Part shown: positions 2,919-50,739 of the stretch, one piece after another
Layout: each line of letters begins with the position of its first letter
How positions within the stretch are numbered: position 1 is the stretch's first letter
Sequence record: PZ445413.1
Direction: 5' to 3' (one strand)
DNA length: 51,285 bases
From: a phage
Made by a program: the position numbers and the translations under genes
The notes under the pieces: generated by a model
What the model saw: the letters and a program-made list of their open reading frames with translations, nothing else
What the model was told of the DNA's origin: nothing
The model's database searches: none

Positions 2919-3664
2919 AGGTAAACGGCATTGTTAAGCAATGGCGATTTCCAGAAGCAAGCGAGCGGGATTTGTCCCGCTCCATTAAACGAGCGGTGCG
3001 TGATCTGGTTGTGTTCATGCGCAGCAAGACGCGAGCTATGAAGTTTGACGCAACAGATCAGGAAATCACCACGGCTGAGGATGAAATCAGAGAGCTTGCA
3101 AAAAATCTGGCGTTGTCGCTGATTGGTTTGCTTCCGTCGCTGGCGGAGGCTGTTTATAAATTCAACTCAAAGCAGTTTGTTAACGTAGCGAAATCAACAG
3201 GCGGCGCGGCTAATCCATCCGTAATATTGTTGATCGCAATCGGAGCCAACCAGGGAGAAAGCTGGTATCAAAAGCTATACGGCGAATGGCACACAATTAG
3301 CGCAGATTCATTCGACAAGCTATTCACAAACATCATTCAGGATTGGGCGGCAAACATCCGGCAAGCAAATTTCACCGGAAAGAATGCCGATCAGGTTGAT
3401 GATATAGCGGAGAAACGTTTTGCTGTTTATTCTTCCTGGGCTGGCAACCGCGCAACCGGAATTATTGGATCGTGGAATAGTCGCCTGATGCGGCAACGTC
3501 TTTATGATGCAGGGGTGAATTCTTATTTCTGGCATGGTATGCTTGACGAGCGCGAGCGACTAAAACACTTACGATGGGAAGGAAAAGAGATCGATTTAAA
3601 CGACATTCACCCGTTTCCAGGTGAGGAGTACGGTTGCCGCTGTTGGGCGATCCCTAAATGGTAA
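2915..3664 (+). CDS. head morphogenesis / minor head protein (putative)
   Basis: 249 aa; ATGA start-stop overlap with portal; positional inference. Confidence 0.45.
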   Translation: MKVNGIVKQWRFPEASERDLSRSIKRAVRDLVVFMRSKTRAMKFDATDQEITTAEDEIRELAKNLALSLIGLLPSLAEAVYKFNSKQFVNVAKSTGGAANPSVILLIAIGANQGESWYQKLYGEWHTISADSFDKLFTNIIQDWAANIRQANFTGKNADQVDDIAEKRFAVYSSWAGNRATGIIGSWNSRLMRQRLYDAGVNSYFWHGMLDERERLKHLRWEGKEIDLNDIHPFPGEEYGCRCWAIPKW

Positions 3665-3677
3665 AGGAGAAATCAAG

Positions 3678-4790
3678 ATGAAAAAAGTGCAACGCTTTGA
3701 TAGCGTACAGGTAAAAGCAAAGATTGATGAACATGGCTTTCTGGTAGACCGTCCGATTGTTGCCCGTATCGGATTACAGATTTACAAAACACCTTTCGGA
3801 GAGCGGCGAGAATTCCGCCCCGCTTCCGAGGTTTTCAAGGCTGATTCACTGGAAACGTTTTCCGGCAAGCCGATCACAATCGGACACGTCACAGTAACGC
3901 CGGAGAATGCAAAGGATGTTGTTGTGGGCGCGTGCGCTGGTGCTGGCGTGCCAAATGGGGTTGGCGTAGAGGTTCCGTTAAGCATTTACGACAAGCGAGC
4001 CATTCAGAGCGCCAAGAAAAAGCAGACCGCCGAATTGTCAGTCGGTTACACTTCCGTTGATATTGACAAACCAGGCTGGGGCAACAACGCAACTGGTGAA
4101 TATTTCTTTGATGAAGATATGCCGGAAGGATGGAAAGCAGACAGCGCGGATTGGGTTAGATTTGATGCGGTGCAAACCAATATCAGCGTAAACCATATCG
4201 CTATGGTGTTTAAAGGTCGCGCGGGTATCGCAAAATTGAATCTTGATAGCGAGCAAGAATTCCCGTATGATAACACCGAAATTTCAAACAAAGAGGATCA
4301 TGTAATGACTGTAAAAATTAAACTGGACGGCGCTGTTGAATTCGATGTGCCAAAAGAAGTTGCAACCTTCATTGAAAACGTGAAAGCAGACGCAGAAGCG
4401 GCAAAAGTAAAAGCCGATGGCCTGGAAGCAGAGCGAGATGCACTGAAAACCAAAGTTGATGGTATTCCGGCTGAGATCGAAAAAGCCGTTGCACAGGCTA
4501 AAGCAGACGCGGAAGCACATGCAGAGCTTGTAAAAGTTGCCGAGGAAGTAGGCGTGAAAACTGATGGCCTGGACGCAAAAGCAATCAAAGTTGCTTACGT
4601 CAAAGAGGTTACAGGCGCTGACATTTCCACTAAAGCAGACGCTTACATTGATGTTGCCTTTGATCTGGCTAAAGATTCTGATAAAATGGCGGCTCAACGT
4701 ATCGCAACCAAAGGCGATGCGGCACAAGAAAAACAGGACGGCGAAACGGTTTTAGATCCGAATGCGCGCCTGGCTAAACTTAACAAGTAA
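3678..4790 (+). CDS. capsid scaffolding protein (possibly protease-scaffold fusion)
   Basis: RBS aaaggag upstream of ATG 3678; C-terminal half is A/E/K-rich coiled-coil typical of scaffolds; position before capsid genes. Confidence 0.5.
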   Translation: MKKVQRFDSVQVKAKIDEHGFLVDRPIVARIGLQIYKTPFGERREFRPASEVFKADSLETFSGKPITIGHVTVTPENAKDVVVGACAGAGVPNGVGVEVPLSIYDKRAIQSAKKKQTAELSVGYTSVDIDKPGWGNNATGEYFFDEDMPEGWKADSADWVRFDAVQTNISVNHIAMVFKGRAGIAKLNLDSEQEFPYDNTEISNKEDHVMTVKIKLDGAVEFDVPKEVATFIENVKADAEAAKVKADGLEAERDALKTKVDGIPAEIEKAVAQAKADAEAHAELVKVAEEVGVKTDGLDAKAIKVAYVKEVTGADISTKADAYIDVAFDLAKDSDKMAAQRIATKGDAAQEKQDGETVLDPNARLAKLNK

Positions 4791-4802: not shown

Positions 4803-5291
4803 ATGGCTATTCCGGCATATTATCAAAAGAACATGGCACGAGCTTTACCTGGTCAAGTTGCTGACACTTCCGCATATAACATCGACGGCGCTTGTGTTCT
4901 GAATACCGAGGGCGGCAAGTCTATTTTTGTTGGCGTTGCTGTTAAGCATGGCGGCGTTGATGCAATGGGTAACAAAATCATCAAGCCTATCACCAGCGCT
5001 GGCGATCACGCTTACGGAGTTGCGATTCGCTCACACTTCCAGACTACGGGCGAAAATGGCCGAATGGTTTACGAGGACGGCGGCGGCATCAACGTAATTA
5101 CCGAGGGGCGCGTTTGGATGATTACAAGCGAGGCTGTTGCTCCAGCTTACGACACACCGATCAAAATTAAGGCCGATACTGGCTTTGTAGATACGGCGGC
5201 GGGAGAGATTGAAACGGATTGGATCGCAACTGGCGACTTTACCAAATTCCAAGATCTCAACCTGGTTGAAGTGAAGTTGTTCGGCGCATAA
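4803..5291 (+). CDS. head structural / decoration-like protein (paralog 1)
   Basis: 162 aa; strong RBS aaggaga; C-terminus (GDFTKFQDLNLVEVKL) paralogous to the next ORF; followed by a strong terminator. Confidence 0.45.
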   Translation: MAIPAYYQKNMARALPGQVADTSAYNIDGACVLNTEGGKSIFVGVAVKHGGVDAMGNKIIKPITSAGDHAYGVAIRSHFQTTGENGRMVYEDGGGINVITEGRVWMITSEAVAPAYDTPIKIKADTGFVDTAAGEIETDWIATGDFTKFQDLNLVEVKLFGA

Positions 5292-5306
5292 TCTCGCGAT
5301 ATAATA

Positions 5307-5332
5307 GGCACTCTTTTTAGAGTGCCTTTTTT
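5307..5332 (+). terminator. rho-independent terminator
   Basis: ggcactct / agagtgcc 8-bp stem, TTTT loop, T-run. Confidence 0.65.
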
Positions 5333-5353
5333 ATTTTCAGAGGAGATAAAATT

Positions 5354-6163
5354 ATGTCTGATTATGGCGTTTTGTGGGGTGCAACTGAGCCAGGGTGCAT
5401 GTTGGATTCAAGTCGCTATATTATTGATGGTACTGGCGTTTGCAAAGATGAAACCATTCTGATTGGTAAAGTTGTGATGGTTGATGAAATCGTTAACGGC
5501 TACCGCATGATCACATCGAAGTACAGCCAGCAAATCCGGCCTTGTGGGATCGCGTTGCGCACTCACTCTTGTTTATATTCTGACGAGTCGAGCGGCTACA
5601 TGGTTTACCGTTCAGGGGATCCAATTAACGTTGCTCGTCGCGGTCGAGTTTGGGCTTTGACAGAGCAAATTGATTCAGCGCCTAACTACGGTCAAGCTGT
5701 TTATGTTGCTGATGATGGTTTTGTTAATGCTGGTAATGGTCAAATTGTTGACGGCTGGACTTTTACAGGCGACTTTATGAAATACGACAAGCAATTTAAC
5801 CTTGTTGGCGTAAATCTTTCCGTTGTTAAGTTGCGACCAATCGGACCGCCACCAGTACCAGTTAAAGCGGCGTTGATTGAGTCTGATATTACAGAGAATG
5901 CCCCGCAACCTAACAATAAACCAATTCAATTACGTGTAACCGTTAAGCCGGATAATGCAACGGATAGAACTGGCACATGGTCATGCTGGGAAGATGAAGC
6001 AAGAACATCCGAGGTTCACAATATTGCTGATGTGGATCAGAATGGACTTGTAACCCCAACAGGAACAGCAGAGGGAACCGTGTTTATAAATTGGGATGCT
6101 AACGATGGTTCTGGCGTTTCAGATACATACGTTCTTGATTTTGTAAATCCGGCTCTACCATAA
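5354..6163 (+). CDS. head structural protein with C-terminal Ig-like domain (paralog 2)
   Basis: 269 aa; shares GRVW...TGDF...NLVGVNL segment with 4803-5291; C-terminal ~90 aa resembles a bacterial Ig-like fold (sequence impression only). Confidence 0.4.
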   Translation: MSDYGVLWGATEPGCMLDSSRYIIDGTGVCKDETILIGKVVMVDEIVNGYRMITSKYSQQIRPCGIALRTHSCLYSDESSGYMVYRSGDPINVARRGRVWALTEQIDSAPNYGQAVYVADDGFVNAGNGQIVDGWTFTGDFMKYDKQFNLVGVNLSVVKLRPIGPPPVPVKAALIESDITENAPQPNNKPIQLRVTVKPDNATDRTGTWSCWEDEARTSEVHNIADVDQNGLVTPTGTAEGTVFINWDANDGSGVSDTYVLDFVNPALP

Positions 6164-6177
6164 AAATCTGTTGCACG

Positions 6178-6195
6178 TTTAACAAAAAATGCTAT
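6178..6195 (-). repeat. 20-bp box, inverted orientation within late operon
   Basis: plus strand reads tttaacaaaaaatgctat. Confidence 0.45.
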
Positions 6196-6199
6196 CATT

Positions 6200-6225
6200 G
6201 GGCTGTCAATTAAAACAGCCCTTTT
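6200..6225 (+). terminator. rho-independent terminator upstream of capsid gene
   Basis: gggctgt / acagccc stem plus TTTT. Confidence 0.55.
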
Positions 6226-6239
6226 AAGGAGAATTAGCA

Positions 6240-7211
6240 ATGACTGGCAAAACTAAGAAATATGATGAATTCGACGCTTCCGTTGTTTCCGCGCATCTTC
6301 AAGCGCGAGGCGTAAAATCAGATGCGTCCGATATGGGTATTTGGACGGCGCAAGAGCTACACAAGATCCGCTCTACCGCTTACGATAAAGAGTATCCAGT
6401 AGGCTCCGCGCTTCGCGTGTTCCCTGTTACCAATGAACTGAGCGACACCGACAAAACGTTTGAGTATCAGACTTTTGATAAAGTTGGTTACGCGAAAATC
6501 ATCGCTGATTATACCGACGACCTGCCAACTGTTGACGCGCTTATGTCTACTGAGTTTGGTAAAGTGTTCCGCCTGGGTAACGCGTTCCTGATTTCCATTG
6601 ACGAGATCAAAGCAGGTCAACGCACTGGTAAGAGCCTGAGCAACCGTAAAGCGAATGCAGCACAGAGCGCACACGATCACCTCGTCAATCACCTGGTGTT
6701 TAAAGGCTCCAAGCCTCATAAGATTATTAGCGTGTTCGAACATCCGAACATCACTAAGATTACGGCGGCTAAACAGTGGTTTGAAAAAGCAACCAAAACC
6801 AAAAATGCCGAGGACGCTTACAACGATCTGACTGATGCACTTGAAGCGCTGGAAACCCAAACTGACGGGCAGCACCGCGCAACGCACATCCTGATCCCGC
6901 CGAGCGTTCGTAAAGTTCTGATGGTTCGTATGCCTGAAACGACCGAAAGCTACCTTGATTACTTCATGAAGCAAAACGGCGGCATTACGATTGAATCAAT
7001 CGCAGAGCTTGAGGATATCGACGGAACTGGTAAAAAGGGTGTTTTGGTCTACGAAAAAGACCCGATGAATATGTCAATTGAAATTCCAGAAGCGTTTAAC
7101 ATGCTTCCGGCGCAGCCTAAAGACCTGCATTTCAAAGTGCCTTGCACCTCCAAGTGTACCGGACTGACAATTTATCGCCCATTAACTCTTGTTTTAATCG
7201 TTGGCGTGTAA
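6240..7211 (+). CDS. major capsid protein (putative)
   Basis: 323 aa; RBS aaggaga; position after scaffold and decoration genes; size typical of HK97-fold capsid. Confidence 0.55.
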   Translation: MTGKTKKYDEFDASVVSAHLQARGVKSDASDMGIWTAQELHKIRSTAYDKEYPVGSALRVFPVTNELSDTDKTFEYQTFDKVGYAKIIADYTDDLPTVDALMSTEFGKVFRLGNAFLISIDEIKAGQRTGKSLSNRKANAAQSAHDHLVNHLVFKGSKPHKIISVFEHPNITKITAAKQWFEKATKTKNAEDAYNDLTDALEALETQTDGQHRATHILIPPSVRKVLMVRMPETTESYLDYFMKQNGGITIESIAELEDIDGTGKKGVLVYEKDPMNMSIEIPEAFNMLPAQPKDLHFKVPCTSKCTGLTIYRPLTLVLIVGV

Positions 7212-7262
7212 TAATATTGGGGAATCCTTCGGGGTTCCCCTTTACTTTATGGAGATTTAAAA

Positions 7263-8807: not shown

Positions 8808-9198
8808 ATTAATGCTCGCGGCGCGTAAGGCGCTTGCTGAGGAATACGAAAATACATTCAAGATCGCATATGAAAACGTTGAGTTTGTGCCGCCTAATGA
8901 CGGCTCGCCGTGGTTGGCTTTTCACTATAAAGAAGTGAGTAGCGATTATTTATCTCTTGATCGAAAGTGCCGATCCTACATCGGACTTGTTCAAGTAAAC
9001 ATCATCTTTGCCCCTGGCGCTGGAACCGACAAGGCGCGGCGGCTGGCAAAAAATATTGCTGATTTCTTTGAAGATGGTAAAATGCTTGAGCATGGTTATA
9101 TATATGAGGGCGGAGAAGTTCGACCCGTTCAGAAAAGTGAAACAGGCTGGCTTGTTCCGGTTCGTTTCAGTGTTAGAGTTGAAGAAAAGAGGATCTAA
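8797..9198 (+). CDS. tail terminator / neck protein (putative)
   Basis: 133 aa; overlaps previous gene end; immediately upstream of major tail gene. Confidence 0.4.
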   Translation: MHYELMLAARKALAEEYENTFKIAYENVEFVPPNDGSPWLAFHYKEVSSDYLSLDRKCRSYIGLVQVNIIFAPGAGTDKARRLAKNIADFFEDGKMLEHGYIYEGGEVRPVQKSETGWLVPVRFSVRVEEKRI

Positions 9199-9927: not shown

Positions 9928-9945
9928 TTTTAACAAAAAATGCTA
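9928..9945 (-). repeat. 20-bp box, inverted orientation within late operon
   Basis: plus strand reads ttttaacaaaaaatgctat, immediately upstream of chaperone RBS. Confidence 0.45.
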
Positions 9946-9961
9946 TTCAGGAGAAATGACA

Positions 9962-13682: not shown

Positions 13683-13686
13683 GACA

Positions 13687-13723
13687 AGCCGCCTTTGTGC
13701 GGCTTTTTTATTGGTGCTATAAT
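13687..13723 (+). promoter_or_regulatory. terminator with embedded sigma70-like promoter
   Basis: hairpin agccgc/gcggct plus T-run; -35 TTGTGC in hairpin, 17-nt spacer, extended -10 TGcTATAAT at 13715-13723. Confidence 0.5.
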
Positions 13724-13750: not shown

Positions 13751-14506
13751 ATGGCTACAGACTTAAACAAAGACTTTGCCAACTGCTTACAAAGCCTTTA
13801 CCCTGGCGAGATCATCACGCTTGTTGAGGTTGACGGCACAAAGTTTGGCGCTAACGTTTATCGGTTCCACGCTGAGAATTTGCAGTACACCGCAGAGGAA
13901 TTAATGATCGCGAGAGAAACCGGAGTGCTACCGCCAAAAGACATTGTTTTCCAGGGTGAGGTTTACGGCGCGCGGCCTTTCGGTATTAGCGGGATCAGCT
14001 TCACCAGCAACGGAAAGGCAGATAAACCGCAATTAACGCTTTCGAATCTTGATAGCCAGGTTAGCGCAATGATTCGCGCCTACAATGGCATGATGCAAGC
14101 GAAGGTCACGATCTGGATTACGGCGGCTGACTTTCTGCAAGCAGACGGAAGCGTTGCAGATGGTGCTTACAGGAAACTTGTTTATTACATTGAGCGCCCA
14201 AACTATTGCAATCAGTCTGTTGCACGATTCGATCTCACATCGCCTTATGATATGGACGGGATCATGATACCGCCACGCATTAGCCAAAGCGTTTGTTATT
14301 GGGCGCAACGCGGCTGGTACAGGAGCGGGAAGGGTTGCGGGTATAATGGCGCGGCTATGTTCGACAAAGACAATAACCCCGTAACAGATCCGGCGCAGGA
14401 CTATTGCGCAGGAACCGCAACGGCTTGCAAAATTCGTTTCGGATTTGATCAGCCATTAGATTTTGGCGGTTGCGCCGTCGCTTCACTGTTGAGGAAAAAC
14501 CAATGA
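13751..14506 (+). CDS. minor tail protein (lambda L-like)
   Basis: RBS aaagaggag before ATG 13751; C-terminal cysteine cluster (C..C..C....C) as in Fe-S-binding L proteins. Confidence 0.55.
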   Translation: MATDLNKDFANCLQSLYPGEIITLVEVDGTKFGANVYRFHAENLQYTAEELMIARETGVLPPKDIVFQGEVYGARPFGISGISFTSNGKADKPQLTLSNLDSQVSAMIRAYNGMMQAKVTIWITAADFLQADGSVADGAYRKLVYYIERPNYCNQSVARFDLTSPYDMDGIMIPPRISQSVCYWAQRGWYRSGKGCGYNGAAMFDKDNNPVTDPAQDYCAGTATACKIRFGFDQPLDFGGCAVASLLRKNQ

Positions 14507-36223: not shown

Positions 36224-36266
36224 AATATACCAGATACAAGATCGGGTTTTTTAACAAAAAGTGCTA
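36224..36266 (-). repeat. box cassette (minus strand)
   Basis: minus ATAGCACTTTTTGTTAAAAAAC ... TATATT; box carries stop TAG of 36264-36458. Confidence 0.45.
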
Positions 36267-36458
36267 TTCAAGCAATCTGACGTTAACCAATATCACGCCA
36301 TCACCATCACATAAATTATGCTCCTTGTCGCCAAACGCTTTCATGTCGGCTCGCATTATGGTTAACAGCGCATAAATCAGATCATCATGTGAGATTGAAT
36401 TTACGGCGCAATGCTTCAATATCTCGTCGATTAGTTTTTGAGCAGAATAATTCTTCAT
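36264..36458 (-). CDS. hypothetical protein (overlaps next gene)
   Basis: 64 aa; stop TAG inside box; 74-nt out-of-frame overlap with 36385-36777; weak RBS. Confidence 0.3.
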   Translation of the reverse strand: MKNYSAQKLIDEILKHCAVNSISHDDLIYALLTIMRADMKAFGDKEHNLCDGDGVILVNVRLLE

Positions 36459-38378: not shown

Positions 38379-38435
38379 TTGTTGCCGCTAATTATAACGG
38401 CAACAATACTACCCTGTTTTAACAAAAAGTGCTAT
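38379..38435 (-). repeat. box cassette with TATAAT in hairpin loop (minus strand)
   Basis: minus ATAGCACTTTTTGTTAAAAC then ttgttgccg-TTATAATTAG-cggcaacaa then aaaggaga-ATG. Confidence 0.55.
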
Positions 38436-40382: not shown

Positions 40383-40411
40383 TGCTTTATTTCCTTGTTT
40401 CGTTTGTTGAT

Positions 40412-40460
40412 GCGCCCATTATACCAGGGCGCGTGATTTCGTTTTAACAAAAAGTGCTAT
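40412..40460 (-). repeat. box cassette with extended -10 in hairpin loop (minus strand)
   Basis: minus ATAGCACTTTTTGTTAAAAC then gcgccc-TGGTATAAT-gggcgc. Confidence 0.55.
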
Positions 40461-43606: not shown

Positions 43607-43689
43607 TGAAAGAGCCTGGACAATTTGCAATAGGAATTTTTATCTGGCTTGCGGTCATATTCTGGATCGCGTGGATTATCGCAAGATAG
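43606..43689 (+). CDS. small hydrophobic peptide (27 aa, single TM)
   Basis: taATG overlap with lipoprotein gene; MKEPGQFAIGIFIWLAVIFWIAWIIAR; stop TAG inside box; not in ORF track. Confidence 0.3.
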   Translation: MKEPGQFAIGIFIWLAVIFWIAWIIAR

Positions 43690-43735
43690 CACTTTTTGTT
43701 AAAACTCGATTCAGGGGTTGCGATATAGTAACCCC
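43686..43735 (+). repeat. box cassette with TATAGT in hairpin loop
   Basis: ATAGCACTTTTTGTTAAAAC; ggggtt-gcgaTATAGTa-acccc; leader aacgagga. Confidence 0.55.
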
Positions 43736-45541: not shown

Positions 45542-45587
45542 CACGAATTGCTAAAACAGATTAACGGGGTTGCGTTATAGTAGCCCC
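45538..45587 (+). repeat. box cassette (variant)
   Basis: ATAGCACGAATTGCTAAAAC; gggg...TATAGT...cccc. Confidence 0.5.
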
Positions 45588-45613
45588 ACACCAAACGAGA
45601 GAAGGAAAACAAA

Positions 45614-46534: not shown

Positions 46535-46574
46535 CACGAAATGTTAAAAGCGGGGCAGTTAGTCCCGCTATAAT
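46531..46574 (+). repeat. box cassette
   Basis: ATAGCACGAAATGTTAAAAG; hairpin gcggg...cccgc; TATAAT 46569-46574. Confidence 0.55.
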
Positions 46575-46607
46575 GCACCCATACCAACCAAACAAGGAAA
46601 CGACAAA

Positions 46608-47536: not shown

Positions 47537-47582
47537 CACGAATTGCTAAAACTAAATCAGGAGCATTTGTTATAGTGCTCCT
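47533..47582 (+). repeat. box cassette
   Basis: ATAGCACGAATTGCTAAAAC; hairpin aggagca-tttgtTATAG-tgctcct. Confidence 0.5.
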
Positions 47583-47618
47583 CGTTGAGTTAAGCAACCA
47601 ATCAGAGGAGAAATTAAA

Positions 47619-48103: not shown

Positions 48104-48714
48104 AATATGTAAAACCAACAACGGGCGGTTTCGGTTACACTGCTGGCAAACTATATCCGATCCTAATGACCTATGAGGGCGGTCAGATGGTGATAAGAAA
48201 TGACAAAGGTGTTACGCAAATTATTCGCGGCGACGGCAAGCCATCACTACGATTAGAGCGAGGCGGAAAGTTTGAGGTTGTGGATATTCCAGAACCTGGA
48301 GAGGCTCAAGAGTACGCAGTTGAAACAGCAAAAAAGACAAGCGAGGCTCTACGCGAGCACGTAAAAGTGATTGTGAAAGATTCTATTGTTAGCGCGGCGT
48401 TACCTGGCGGCGTGCTTCATAAGGCAGTAAACGAAAGCGATCACTTGCGCGCGGCGCGACAAATCGCCGTAAACGCAACAGAGCTTGCAAGCGAGGTTGC
48501 ATTAGGCCGATATGATGCAAGTCTCTATATGCGACTTGAAAAGGCAGAGCGTGAGGCGGCGCAGCACAAAGCGGATTGCATCAAAGCGGAGGCGATTGTT
48601 GATCAGCTTTATGACATATTCCCGCAGGTGCGCAATCCAGAGCAATTGGTTGCAGCGGTGCGCAGTTCGAAAATCTTTGCTGATGCGTTTTTGGAACTGC
48701 AAAAGGTTAAATAG
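48100..48714 (+). CDS. paralog-family N-terminal module fused to helical C-terminal domain
   Basis: ATG 48100 overlapping previous stop; MKYVKPTTGGFGYTAGKLYPIL; stop TAG inside box. Confidence 0.45.
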   Translation: MKYVKPTTGGFGYTAGKLYPILMTYEGGQMVIRNDKGVTQIIRGDGKPSLRLERGGKFEVVDIPEPGEAQEYAVETAKKTSEALREHVKVIVKDSIVSAALPGGVLHKAVNESDHLRAARQIAVNATELASEVALGRYDASLYMRLEKAEREAAQHKADCIKAEAIVDQLYDIFPQVRNPEQLVAAVRSSKIFADAFLELQKVK

Positions 48715-48760
48715 CACTTTTTGTTAAAACTTCCGCGAGGACATTTGTTAAAGTGTCCTC
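48711..48760 (+). repeat. box cassette
   Basis: ATAGCACTTTTTGTTAAAAC; hairpin gaggaca-tttgttaaag-tgtcctc. Confidence 0.5.
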
Positions 48761-50695: not shown

Positions 50696-50700
50696 CAACA

Positions 50701-50739
50701 AACCCCGCATTTGCGGGGTTTTTTATTGCCTGTTATAAT
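50701..50739 (+). promoter_or_regulatory. terminator with embedded sigma70-like promoter upstream of terS
   Basis: hairpin aaccccgca/tgcggggtt plus T-run; -35 TTGCGG, 17-nt spacer, -10 TATAAT 50734-50739. Confidence 0.5.

Follow-up and report, generated by a model that had tools for sequence, protein, structure and literature searches.

The two tandem open reading frames (ORFs) that lie upstream of the major capsid gene in a 51,285-nucleotide stretch of phage DNA (sequence record PZ445413.1; here called the window, by which the whole stretch is meant) can be assigned with high confidence as the two capsid cement proteins of the phage, counterparts of gp49 and gp48 of phage T1. The gene pair, the immunoglobulin-like (Ig-like) tail of the second product, the place of both on the capsid and the terminator between the genes are already known, because they have been described for T1 and because a deposited phage, Escherichia phage vB_EcoS_W011D (W011D), encodes versions of the two proteins with 93% (ORF1) and 99% (ORF2) identity. 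What is added here is a set of conserved promoter-like elements, which suggests that ORF1, ORF2 and the major capsid protein may be expressed from three separate cassettes. A cement pair placed as in T1, expressed in cassettes and equipped with an optional Ig domain is, in our judgement, quite likely the best explanation overall. The features on which the argument turns are as follows.

4803..5291, + strand: ORF1, cement/decoration protein of the T1 gp49 type, 162 residues, from ATG 4803 to TAA 5291 (Pfam PF22758, E = 4e-25)
5306..5337, + strand: hairpin and T-run resembling an intrinsic terminator (9-bp stem with 4-nt loop at 5306-5327, T-run at 5328-5337)
5354..5821, + strand: N-terminal cement domain of ORF2, residues 1-156, T1 gp48 type (Pfam XM1_gp53, E = 1e-24; Phage_cement, E = 4e-21)
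5822..5866, + strand: proline-rich linker of ORF2, about residues 157-171, VVKLRPIGPPPVPVK (predicted local distance difference test score, pLDDT, below 50 at residues 160-163; homologs differ in its length)
5867..6163, + strand: Ig-like Big_2 domain of ORF2, about residues 172-264, with the stop codon (Pfam, Foldseek and the T1 gp48 alignment)

ORF2 encodes 269 residues between ATG 5354 and TAA 6163 on the + strand, and a Shine-Dalgarno sequence (AAGGAG or GAGGAG) stands 8 nt upstream of each of the two genes. BLASTP aligns their products over 150 residues with 37% identity; at E = 2e-20 the paralogy is far beyond chance. A preliminary description of this DNA, made from its letters alone, had taken the two for tandem paralogs on the basis of a shared segment (GRVW, TGDF, NLV.V.L), which indeed falls within the aligned 150 residues, and had proposed that they are duplicated decoration or cement proteins, one of them possibly surface-binding. 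Family searches agree with the cement assignment. Both products lie well above the cut-offs of Pfam PF22758 (Phage_cement, the structural cement protein of E217 gp24/Pam3 gp6; cut-off 27 bits), with 89.2 bits for ORF1 and 76.2 bits for ORF2, and of PF23982 (XM1 gp53 minor capsid protein), where 65.2 and 87.2 bits, respectively, pass the gathering cut-off. Residues 3-159 of ORF1 match the 158-residue “cement protein II / decoration protein” of phages T1 and FCWL1 (E = 1e-41), a chain present in the Protein Data Bank (PDB) entries 9kmg, 9kmh and 9kzj. ORF2 matches the 255-residue “BIG2 domain-containing protein” of T1 (9kzj_H, E = 2e-30) in an alignment that extends through the Ig tail, and the FCWL1 “decoration protein gp29” (E = 4e-29) in one that likewise extends through the C-terminal domain. 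Identity to the T1 counterparts amounts to 50% for ORF1 (gp49, 158 residues) and 36% for ORF2 (gp48, 255 residues), and the former value suggests that ORF1 would share the fold of the cement proteins.

For ORF2, an AlphaFold2 model was built from an alignment of 22 homologs (mean pLDDT 80). It consists of disordered residues 1-14, an all-beta N-terminal domain, a low-confidence linker near residue 160 and a C-terminal domain with seven strands within residues 172-264 (pLDDT 80-92). Foldseek places the N-terminal domain on the cement chains of FCWL1 and T1 (9kmg_b, 9kzj_I; E = 1e-10, TM-score about 0.78 normalised to the target), followed by the cement proteins of XM1 (7kmx_a) and Pam3 (8hdt_G). 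The C-terminal domain superposes on the Big_2 domain of 7quz with a root-mean-square deviation of 2.1-2.3 Å and 28-30% identity over about 100 columns, and it also matches the tail-tube proteins T5 pb6 and that of DT57C (Foldseek; by sequence 8hqz_p). In Pfam, Big_2 (PF02368) gives 20.7 bits for the whole of ORF2, just below the cut-off of 22.8, and 23.9 bits (E = 4e-5), a marginal pass, for the C-terminal 110 residues by themselves; T1 gp48 scores 30.1 bits. The Ig-like C-terminal domain earlier ascribed to the second protein is thus upheld by the domain-only Big_2 score and by the predicted structure. An insertion, CWEDEARTSEV, which contains a cysteine, occupies about residues 211-221 of this domain (about 5984-6016); it is confined to the closest homologs of the window and is missing in T1 gp48 and in the more distant Ig-bearing homologs. 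A possible origin of the Ig domain by copying from the phage's own tail-tube protein was considered and rejected (E = 0.18; the tail tube has only Phage_tail_3 in Pfam).

The T1 capsid structure provides the frame for placing both proteins. The head is a T=7 shell of 415 capsid proteins (Chen et al., 2025; PMC11945409; PDB 9KZJ), decorated with 80 gp49 homotrimers and 60 heterotrimers, each of one gp48 and two gp49 (PMC11945409), which makes 360 gp49 against 60 gp48, or 6:1. By analogy, the first protein would also be the commoner one in the window phage, as the preliminary description had supposed. Both T1 proteins have a beta-tulip fold, called analogous to that of lambda gpD; the N-terminus of gp49 threads to the inner surface of the shell, and the C-terminal domain of gp48 forms a weak outward protrusion that the authors suggest could help adsorption (PMC11945409). 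Each hexon is ringed by four homotrimers and two heterotrimers (PMC11945409, figure legend). The trimer sites of a T=7 shell fall into the following classes.

Icosahedral threefold: 20 sites, 1 per hexon
Hexon-only quasi-threefold: 60 sites, 3 per hexon
Penton-adjacent: 60 sites, 2 per hexon

Because no other class gives 60 sites with two per hexon, the T1 heterotrimers should be the penton-adjacent ones, and five Ig-bearing subunits would therefore surround each vertex. The icosahedral asymmetric unit of T1 (9kzj) contains one gp48 chain, and the portal-vertex entry of FCWL1 (9kmh) contains five chains of its Ig-bearing paralog (gp29), consistent with a vertex ring. By analogy with T1, the second paralog of the window phage probably sits in penton-adjacent trimers as well. 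ORF1 trimers would then occupy the threefold and quasi-threefold positions, 60 of the 140 trimers on the T=7 shell would carry ORF2 in place of one ORF1 subunit, and the Big_2 domain of ORF2 would be held off the surface by the proline-rich linker. As for presence in virions, indirect indications come from relatives: the GenBank record of phage Rtp calls T1 gp48 and gp49 “abundant capsid-related proteins”, and a gel band of TLS virions has been tentatively assigned to a gp49-type protein.

By its sequence, the window is that of a T1-like siphophage of the family Drexlerviridae. Its head-gene region (3.7 kb, megablast) is 96.4% identical to W011D (Tempevirinae, Changchunvirus) and about 80% identical to many further coliphages and Klebsiella phages. 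The terminase large subunit gene (1-1569) is followed by those for the portal, a Mu F-like head protein, the protease/scaffold, ORF1 and ORF2, and beyond ORF2 lie the major capsid gene and then head-tail connector genes. The two genes that flank the pair are the following.

3621..4790, + strand: prohead protease/scaffold gene (Pfam DUF2213, E = 5e-26; PHROG 530 “head maturation protease”, E = 5e-108)
6240..7211, + strand: major capsid protein, 323 residues (Pfam Major_capside, E = 5e-54; capsid chains 9kmg_A/9kzj_A of FCWL1 and T1, E about 1e-154)

The order protease, cement 1, cement 2, capsid is common to the family, and in all sampled relatives, as in the window, the cement genes lie between the protease/scaffold and capsid genes. 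The comparative sample comprised 23 loci, namely 19 distinct phage records (W011D in twice) and four IMG/VR contigs; relatives were picked through tblastn matches, and cement genes were called in each locus. A single cement gene is found in Rtp, Webervirus, Vilniusvirus, Nouzillyvirus and phiEt88. Two paralogs, the second of 138-167 residues without an Ig domain, occur in Bas11, BEK26, pSf-1, U136B, Vc1 and PHB17, and two paralogs, the second of 250-269 residues with an Ig domain, in T1, Shfl1, the window, W011D, KLB26, brachmannus, ElisaCorrea, K50 and Salmonella phage 36. A neighbour-joining tree built on the cement domains has two clades, with the first paralogs (ORF1 among them) and the single-copy proteins in one and the second paralogs, on longer branches, in the other; because each kind of paralog forms one clade, the duplication of the cement gene looks single and old. 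The Ig motifs ATDKTG.W and NW.ANDGSGV are common to distant genera including T1, and presence and absence of the domain are interleaved on the tree, mixed even within genera; the simplest reading of this patchiness is several losses or recombinational exchange. The core role of the second paralog is probably structural and not adhesive, since it persists without the Ig domain. Loci with a single cement gene, with a pair, and with a pair that includes an Ig domain form a natural series for asking what the second paralog and its Ig domain do. Amino-acid identity to W011D is uneven (92.6% for ORF1, 98.9% for ORF2, 94.4% for the capsid protein), which hints at mosaic exchange inside the head module.

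Between ORF1 and ORF2, the stem arms AGGCACTCT and AGAGTGCCT (5306-5327) are followed by the tail TTTTTATTTT (5328-5337). The hairpin begins 14 nt past the ORF1 stop codon, has 5 G-C pairs among its 9 bp and a folding energy of -14.5 kcal/mol, and the 62-nt spacer as a whole folds with z = -4.5 relative to shuffles. Of 20 loci scanned, 19 have such a hairpin and T-run behind the first (or only) cement gene; their stems include no fewer than seven unrelated sequences, and the T-tract of one of them, Vibrio phage Vc1, is weak. Constant position combined with variable stems is what a conserved terminator usually looks like. In T1, a rho-independent terminator is annotated at this place in the GenBank record (14235-14267), and a review of phage TLS notes that the late region of T1 has been described as a series of terminator-flanked modules. 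A strong predicted terminator between the two genes, as previously noted, is well founded as a feature of the sequence. Literature searches for transcript maps and, by keyword, for capsid cryo-EM of Drexlerviridae phages found none directly, and Rfam and tRNA scans of the whole window gave no matches. A general rule that every terminator of the window is preceded by a -10-like hexamer was tried and dropped; such a hexamer is clear only at 1598 and 5306 and weaker at 7219.

Promoter-like elements and further hairpins were located around the head and tail-tube genes.

4660..4687, + strand: promoter-like TTGATC-16 nt-TAAAAT with TGn, in the 3' end of the protease/scaffold gene, ending 115 nt upstream of the ORF1 ATG
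5277..5305, + strand: promoter-like TTGTTC-17 nt-TATAAT, spanning the ORF1 stop codon and ending at the terminator stem
6171..6198, + strand: promoter-like TTGCAC-16 nt-TATCAT with TGn, shortly before the major capsid gene
6200..6225, + strand: hairpin GGGCTGT/ACAGCCC (6200-6221) and TTTT, between the preceding element and the ribosome-binding site of the capsid gene
7219..7240, + strand: terminator-like hairpin after the capsid gene
9056..9083, + strand: promoter-like TTGCTG-16 nt-TAAAAT with TGn, inside the gene preceding the tail-tube gene, 117 nt before the tail-tube ATG

Sites of the extended -10 pattern (TGnTAnnnT with a TTGnnn hexamer 16-17 nt upstream) number 9 on the + strand, compared with 2.2 ± 1.7 in shuffles. 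In both the window and T1 they precede the genes for cement 1, capsid and tail tube, whose products are high-copy, and not that for cement 2. Of 19 loci scanned, 14 have an element with the geometry of 4660-4687 at 111-125 nt before the first cement gene, T1 (TTGATG-16-TATCAT) and Rtp among them, and in three more a similar element stands at 156-172 nt. The TG and the T of this element are provided by nearly invariant codons of the motif FDLAKDSDKMA, judged by inspection among related sequences: Ser is encoded by TCT in 20 of 21 loci and the second Asp by GAT in 21 of 21, whereas the codons of the first Asp and of neighbouring Ala vary synonymously. The tail-tube element, found in T1 too (locus L011, 17945-17972), has the geometry of the element ahead of the first cement gene. 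The 6171-6198 element is found in 17 of 20 relatives by strict pattern, each with a TTGnnn hexamer upstream. One base past it begins the 6200-6221 hairpin, which persists while its stem differs between genera; a start about 7 nt after the -10 would, we infer, fall inside the 5' arm of that hairpin.

The capsid element overlaps a genome-wide repeat, ATAGCAC(nnn)TTG(n)TAAAA, of which the window holds 24 matches at no more than 2 mismatches against 2.3 expected. It corresponds to the “direct repeat” of 21 nt described in TLS, T1 and Rtp with no function assigned to it (PMC11447400). Near-exact copies number 20, among them 1566-1583, 6178-6195, 9929-9946, 20641-20658, 29192-29209, 36250-36267, 38418-38435, 40443-40460, 43686-43703 and 48711-48728. 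Its direction agrees with local transcription in 18 copies, most of which have, by hand count, a -10-like hexamer [TC]ATA[AG]T about 22 nt past TTGTTA; this spacing would put the repeat at about -58 to -38 of early/middle promoters, where an UP element or an activator site would lie. The two copies at 6178-6195 and 9929-9946 are inverted relative to the late genes, the orientation of the former being conserved across the family, and the spacer and TGn of 6171-6198 make up one such inverted copy of ATAGCAC...TTGTTAAAA. The conserved TTTAACAAAAAGTGCTAT upstream of the capsid gene was accordingly rejected as a simple promoter, being one of the 20 repeat copies, mostly in the opposite orientation to transcription. 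A tentative promoter reading of 6171-6198 is kept because this repeat copy alone has a conserved TTGnnn on its far side. Taken together, ORF1 would belong to a short unit of strong expression, bounded by the promoter-like 4660-4687 and the terminator at 5306-5337; ORF2, between two hairpin terminators, would depend on read-through or a separate promoter; and transcription of the capsid gene would restart at 6171-6198. Such a layout fits the copy numbers of roughly 6:1:7 for the ORF1, ORF2 and capsid types in T1.

Several other readings have to be weighed against this account. Homologs of ORF1 and ORF2 are labelled “putative zonula occludens toxin” and “scaffolding protein” in GenBank (MK778457/NC_054893, W011D; MN781674, XY3; OK272485, JLBYU07; NC_029071, Salmonella phage 36; PP556865, KLB26). 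That the closest relatives' labels are correct, ORF1 being a zonula occludens toxin (Zot)-like protein and ORF2 a scaffolding protein, is extremely improbable: the names stand in the records of W011D, XY3, JLBYU07 and Salmonella phage 36, but neither product matches a Zot or scaffold family in Pfam or PHROGs, both are strongly homologous to cement proteins resolved on mature T1 and FCWL1 capsids, and the scaffold role in such modules usually goes to the protease/scaffold gene and the N-terminus of the capsid protein. The T1 structure contradicts both names. Correct annotation of these relatives is the main value of the finding; in safety screens, an ordinary capsid protein that is named as a toxin can cause a phage to be wrongly excluded from therapy. 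On placement, the icosahedral capsid entry of FCWL1 (9kmg) has no chain of the Ig-bearing paralog, so that placement may differ among relatives. In the window phage this paralog might be limited to the portal vertex, as a collar-like ring of five, instead of being present at all twelve vertices. We consider this very unlikely: gp29 does appear as five chains in 9kmh and not at all in 9kmg, but its omission there may stem from modelling choices, and T1 has its gp48 chain in the asymmetric unit of 9kzj and 60 counted heterotrimers (PMC11945409). Also weighing on the other side, the neighbour-joining tree carries no bootstrap support, and binding by the Ig domain in T1-like phages is itself inferred. 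The domain might have no adhesion role, being a neutral or stabilising passenger on a second paralog that only fits the geometrically distinct penton-adjacent site. The Ig-less second paralogs kept in Bas11, pSf-1, BEK26, U136B, Vc1 and PHB17, the mixture of presence and absence within genera, and the whole lineages that manage with one cement gene (Rtp, Webervirus, Vilniusvirus, Nouzillyvirus, phiEt88) speak for such a passenger, which we regard as possible but doubtful. Its sequence motifs are kept across distant genera, which argues for selection where the domain is present, it is held outward in T1 and on a flexible linker in the ORF2 model, and adhesion roles have been reported for Ig-like capsid decorations such as T4 Hoc. 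We see the Ig domain as probably an optional add-on for weak surface adhesion; that it helps adsorption is plausible, at somewhat below an even chance.

With regard to expression, whether the terminator is the main cause of a lower ORF2 level is, judging from the DNA, a matter of even chances. The TTGTTC-17-TATAAT element adjoins the terminator and may drive ORF2 independently, in which case the terminator may not set the ratio; transcripts started there might be unable to form the hairpin. ORF2 would then have its own promoter at 5277-5305, with a start inside the 5' arm, the 6:1 ratio would be fixed at assembly by acceptance of ORF2 only at penton-adjacent sites, and the hairpin would merely end the ORF1 message. 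We think this rather unlikely, despite a perfect TATAAT that immediately precedes the stem and has a TTGnnn hexamer at a distance of 17 nt on its 5' side, and despite the scarcity of TATAAT on the + strand of the 51-kb window (only 11 hexamers, two of them adjoining terminator hairpins). The TTGnnn-17-TAnnnT geometry recurs in 8 of 15 two-paralog loci of several genera, including T1, Shfl1, two Tlsvirus phages, K50, KLB26 and PHB17, but the other seven have a short intergenic region without the element and yet keep the terminator and the second paralog. Moreover, the TTG derives from a conserved Leu codon, TGn is lacking, unlike in the three conserved extended -10 elements, and the A/T-rich stretch pairs with the T-run in the predicted fold, so that the element could be the ordinary A-rich tract of a terminator instead of a promoter. 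Further points tell against expression cassettes as such: the subunit ratio could depend purely on which sites accept ORF2 at assembly, the promoter-like elements lie partly within conserved coding sequence or in the genome-wide repeat, the ribosome-binding sites of ORF1, ORF2 and the capsid gene look equally strong, and for this phage the idea is drawn from sequence. It is therefore only tentatively that we propose the fullest form of the cassette account, in which the T1-like head module would consist of three insulated cassettes that pre-set capsid stoichiometry, with a second paralog specialised for penton sites and an Ig domain that is a repeatedly lost, optional adhesion module. In that form, each hairpin bracketing ORF2 would be overlapped by the next promoter and so folded only by read-through transcripts, and an inverted copy of the genome-wide “direct repeat” would form the basis of the capsid promoter. 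The cassette layout and the patchy Ig domain offer simple, testable hypotheses, the former on how gene layout relates to the 6:1:7 stoichiometry.

Among known systems, T1 is the closest model: it shares the order protease, gp49, terminator, gp48, capsid, the Big_2 tail on the second paralog, the Pfam families and the predicted fold. T1 belongs to Tunavirinae, whereas the window is Changchunvirus-like within Tempevirinae, and ORF2 is 14 residues longer than gp48 and has the CWEDEARTSEV insertion. FCWL1 (PDB 9KMG/9KMH) likewise has a T1-like capsid with both paralogs (158 residues; gp29, 255 residues) and gives the best Foldseek matches of the ORF2 model; unlike the T1 model, its deposited models have the Ig-bearing paralog at the portal vertex only. 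The phages that named the two Pfam families, E217, Pam3 and XM1, are myophages with, by the family names, a single cement protein. Trimers of lambda gpD likewise occupy the threefold and quasi-threefold sites of an HK97-fold shell with T=7, but gpD is a single species without an Ig domain, and its N-terminus does not thread inside as that of T1 gp49 does; no sequence similarity between gpD and the window cement proteins was found. T4 Hoc and T5 pb10 resemble the ORF2 type in carrying an outward Ig-like domain on a dispensable decoration subunit, but they bind hexon centres as monomers and not as a subunit of a cement trimer. Ig domains that match the C-terminal domain of ORF2 also occur on the tail tubes of T5 (pb6) and DT57C.

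Some minor observations concern the capsid protein and the regulatory signals. A relative of the window capsid protein (6240-7211; E = 2e-97) is contained in PDB entries 9N01/9YIX, to which a 2026 preprint refers in its account of bacterial STAND/NLR-like receptors for core phage proteins, so that capsid proteins of the window type may already be known to trigger a defence system. The repeat copy 9929-9946, read along its own orientation, has TAGAGT at the -10 position and then a minus-strand hairpin (9881-9867); a very short antisense RNA could arise from it behind the tail-tube gene. At many of the putative promoters linked to the repeat, a GC-rich inverted repeat contains the -10 hexamer or immediately precedes it, as in gcgccctggTATAATgggcgc and ggggttgcgaTATAGTaacccc; the sites include 40410-40440 (- strand), 43710-43735, 45560-45590, 46550-46580, 47555-47585 and 48735-48760, and the -10 would there sit in or beside a predicted hairpin. 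At the terminators 13684-13722 and 50700-50739, the 3' arm of the hairpin together with the T-run also supplies the -35 and the spacer of a promoter-like site with extended -10 (TGCTATAAT and TGTTATAAT), so that termination and re-initiation signals overlap.

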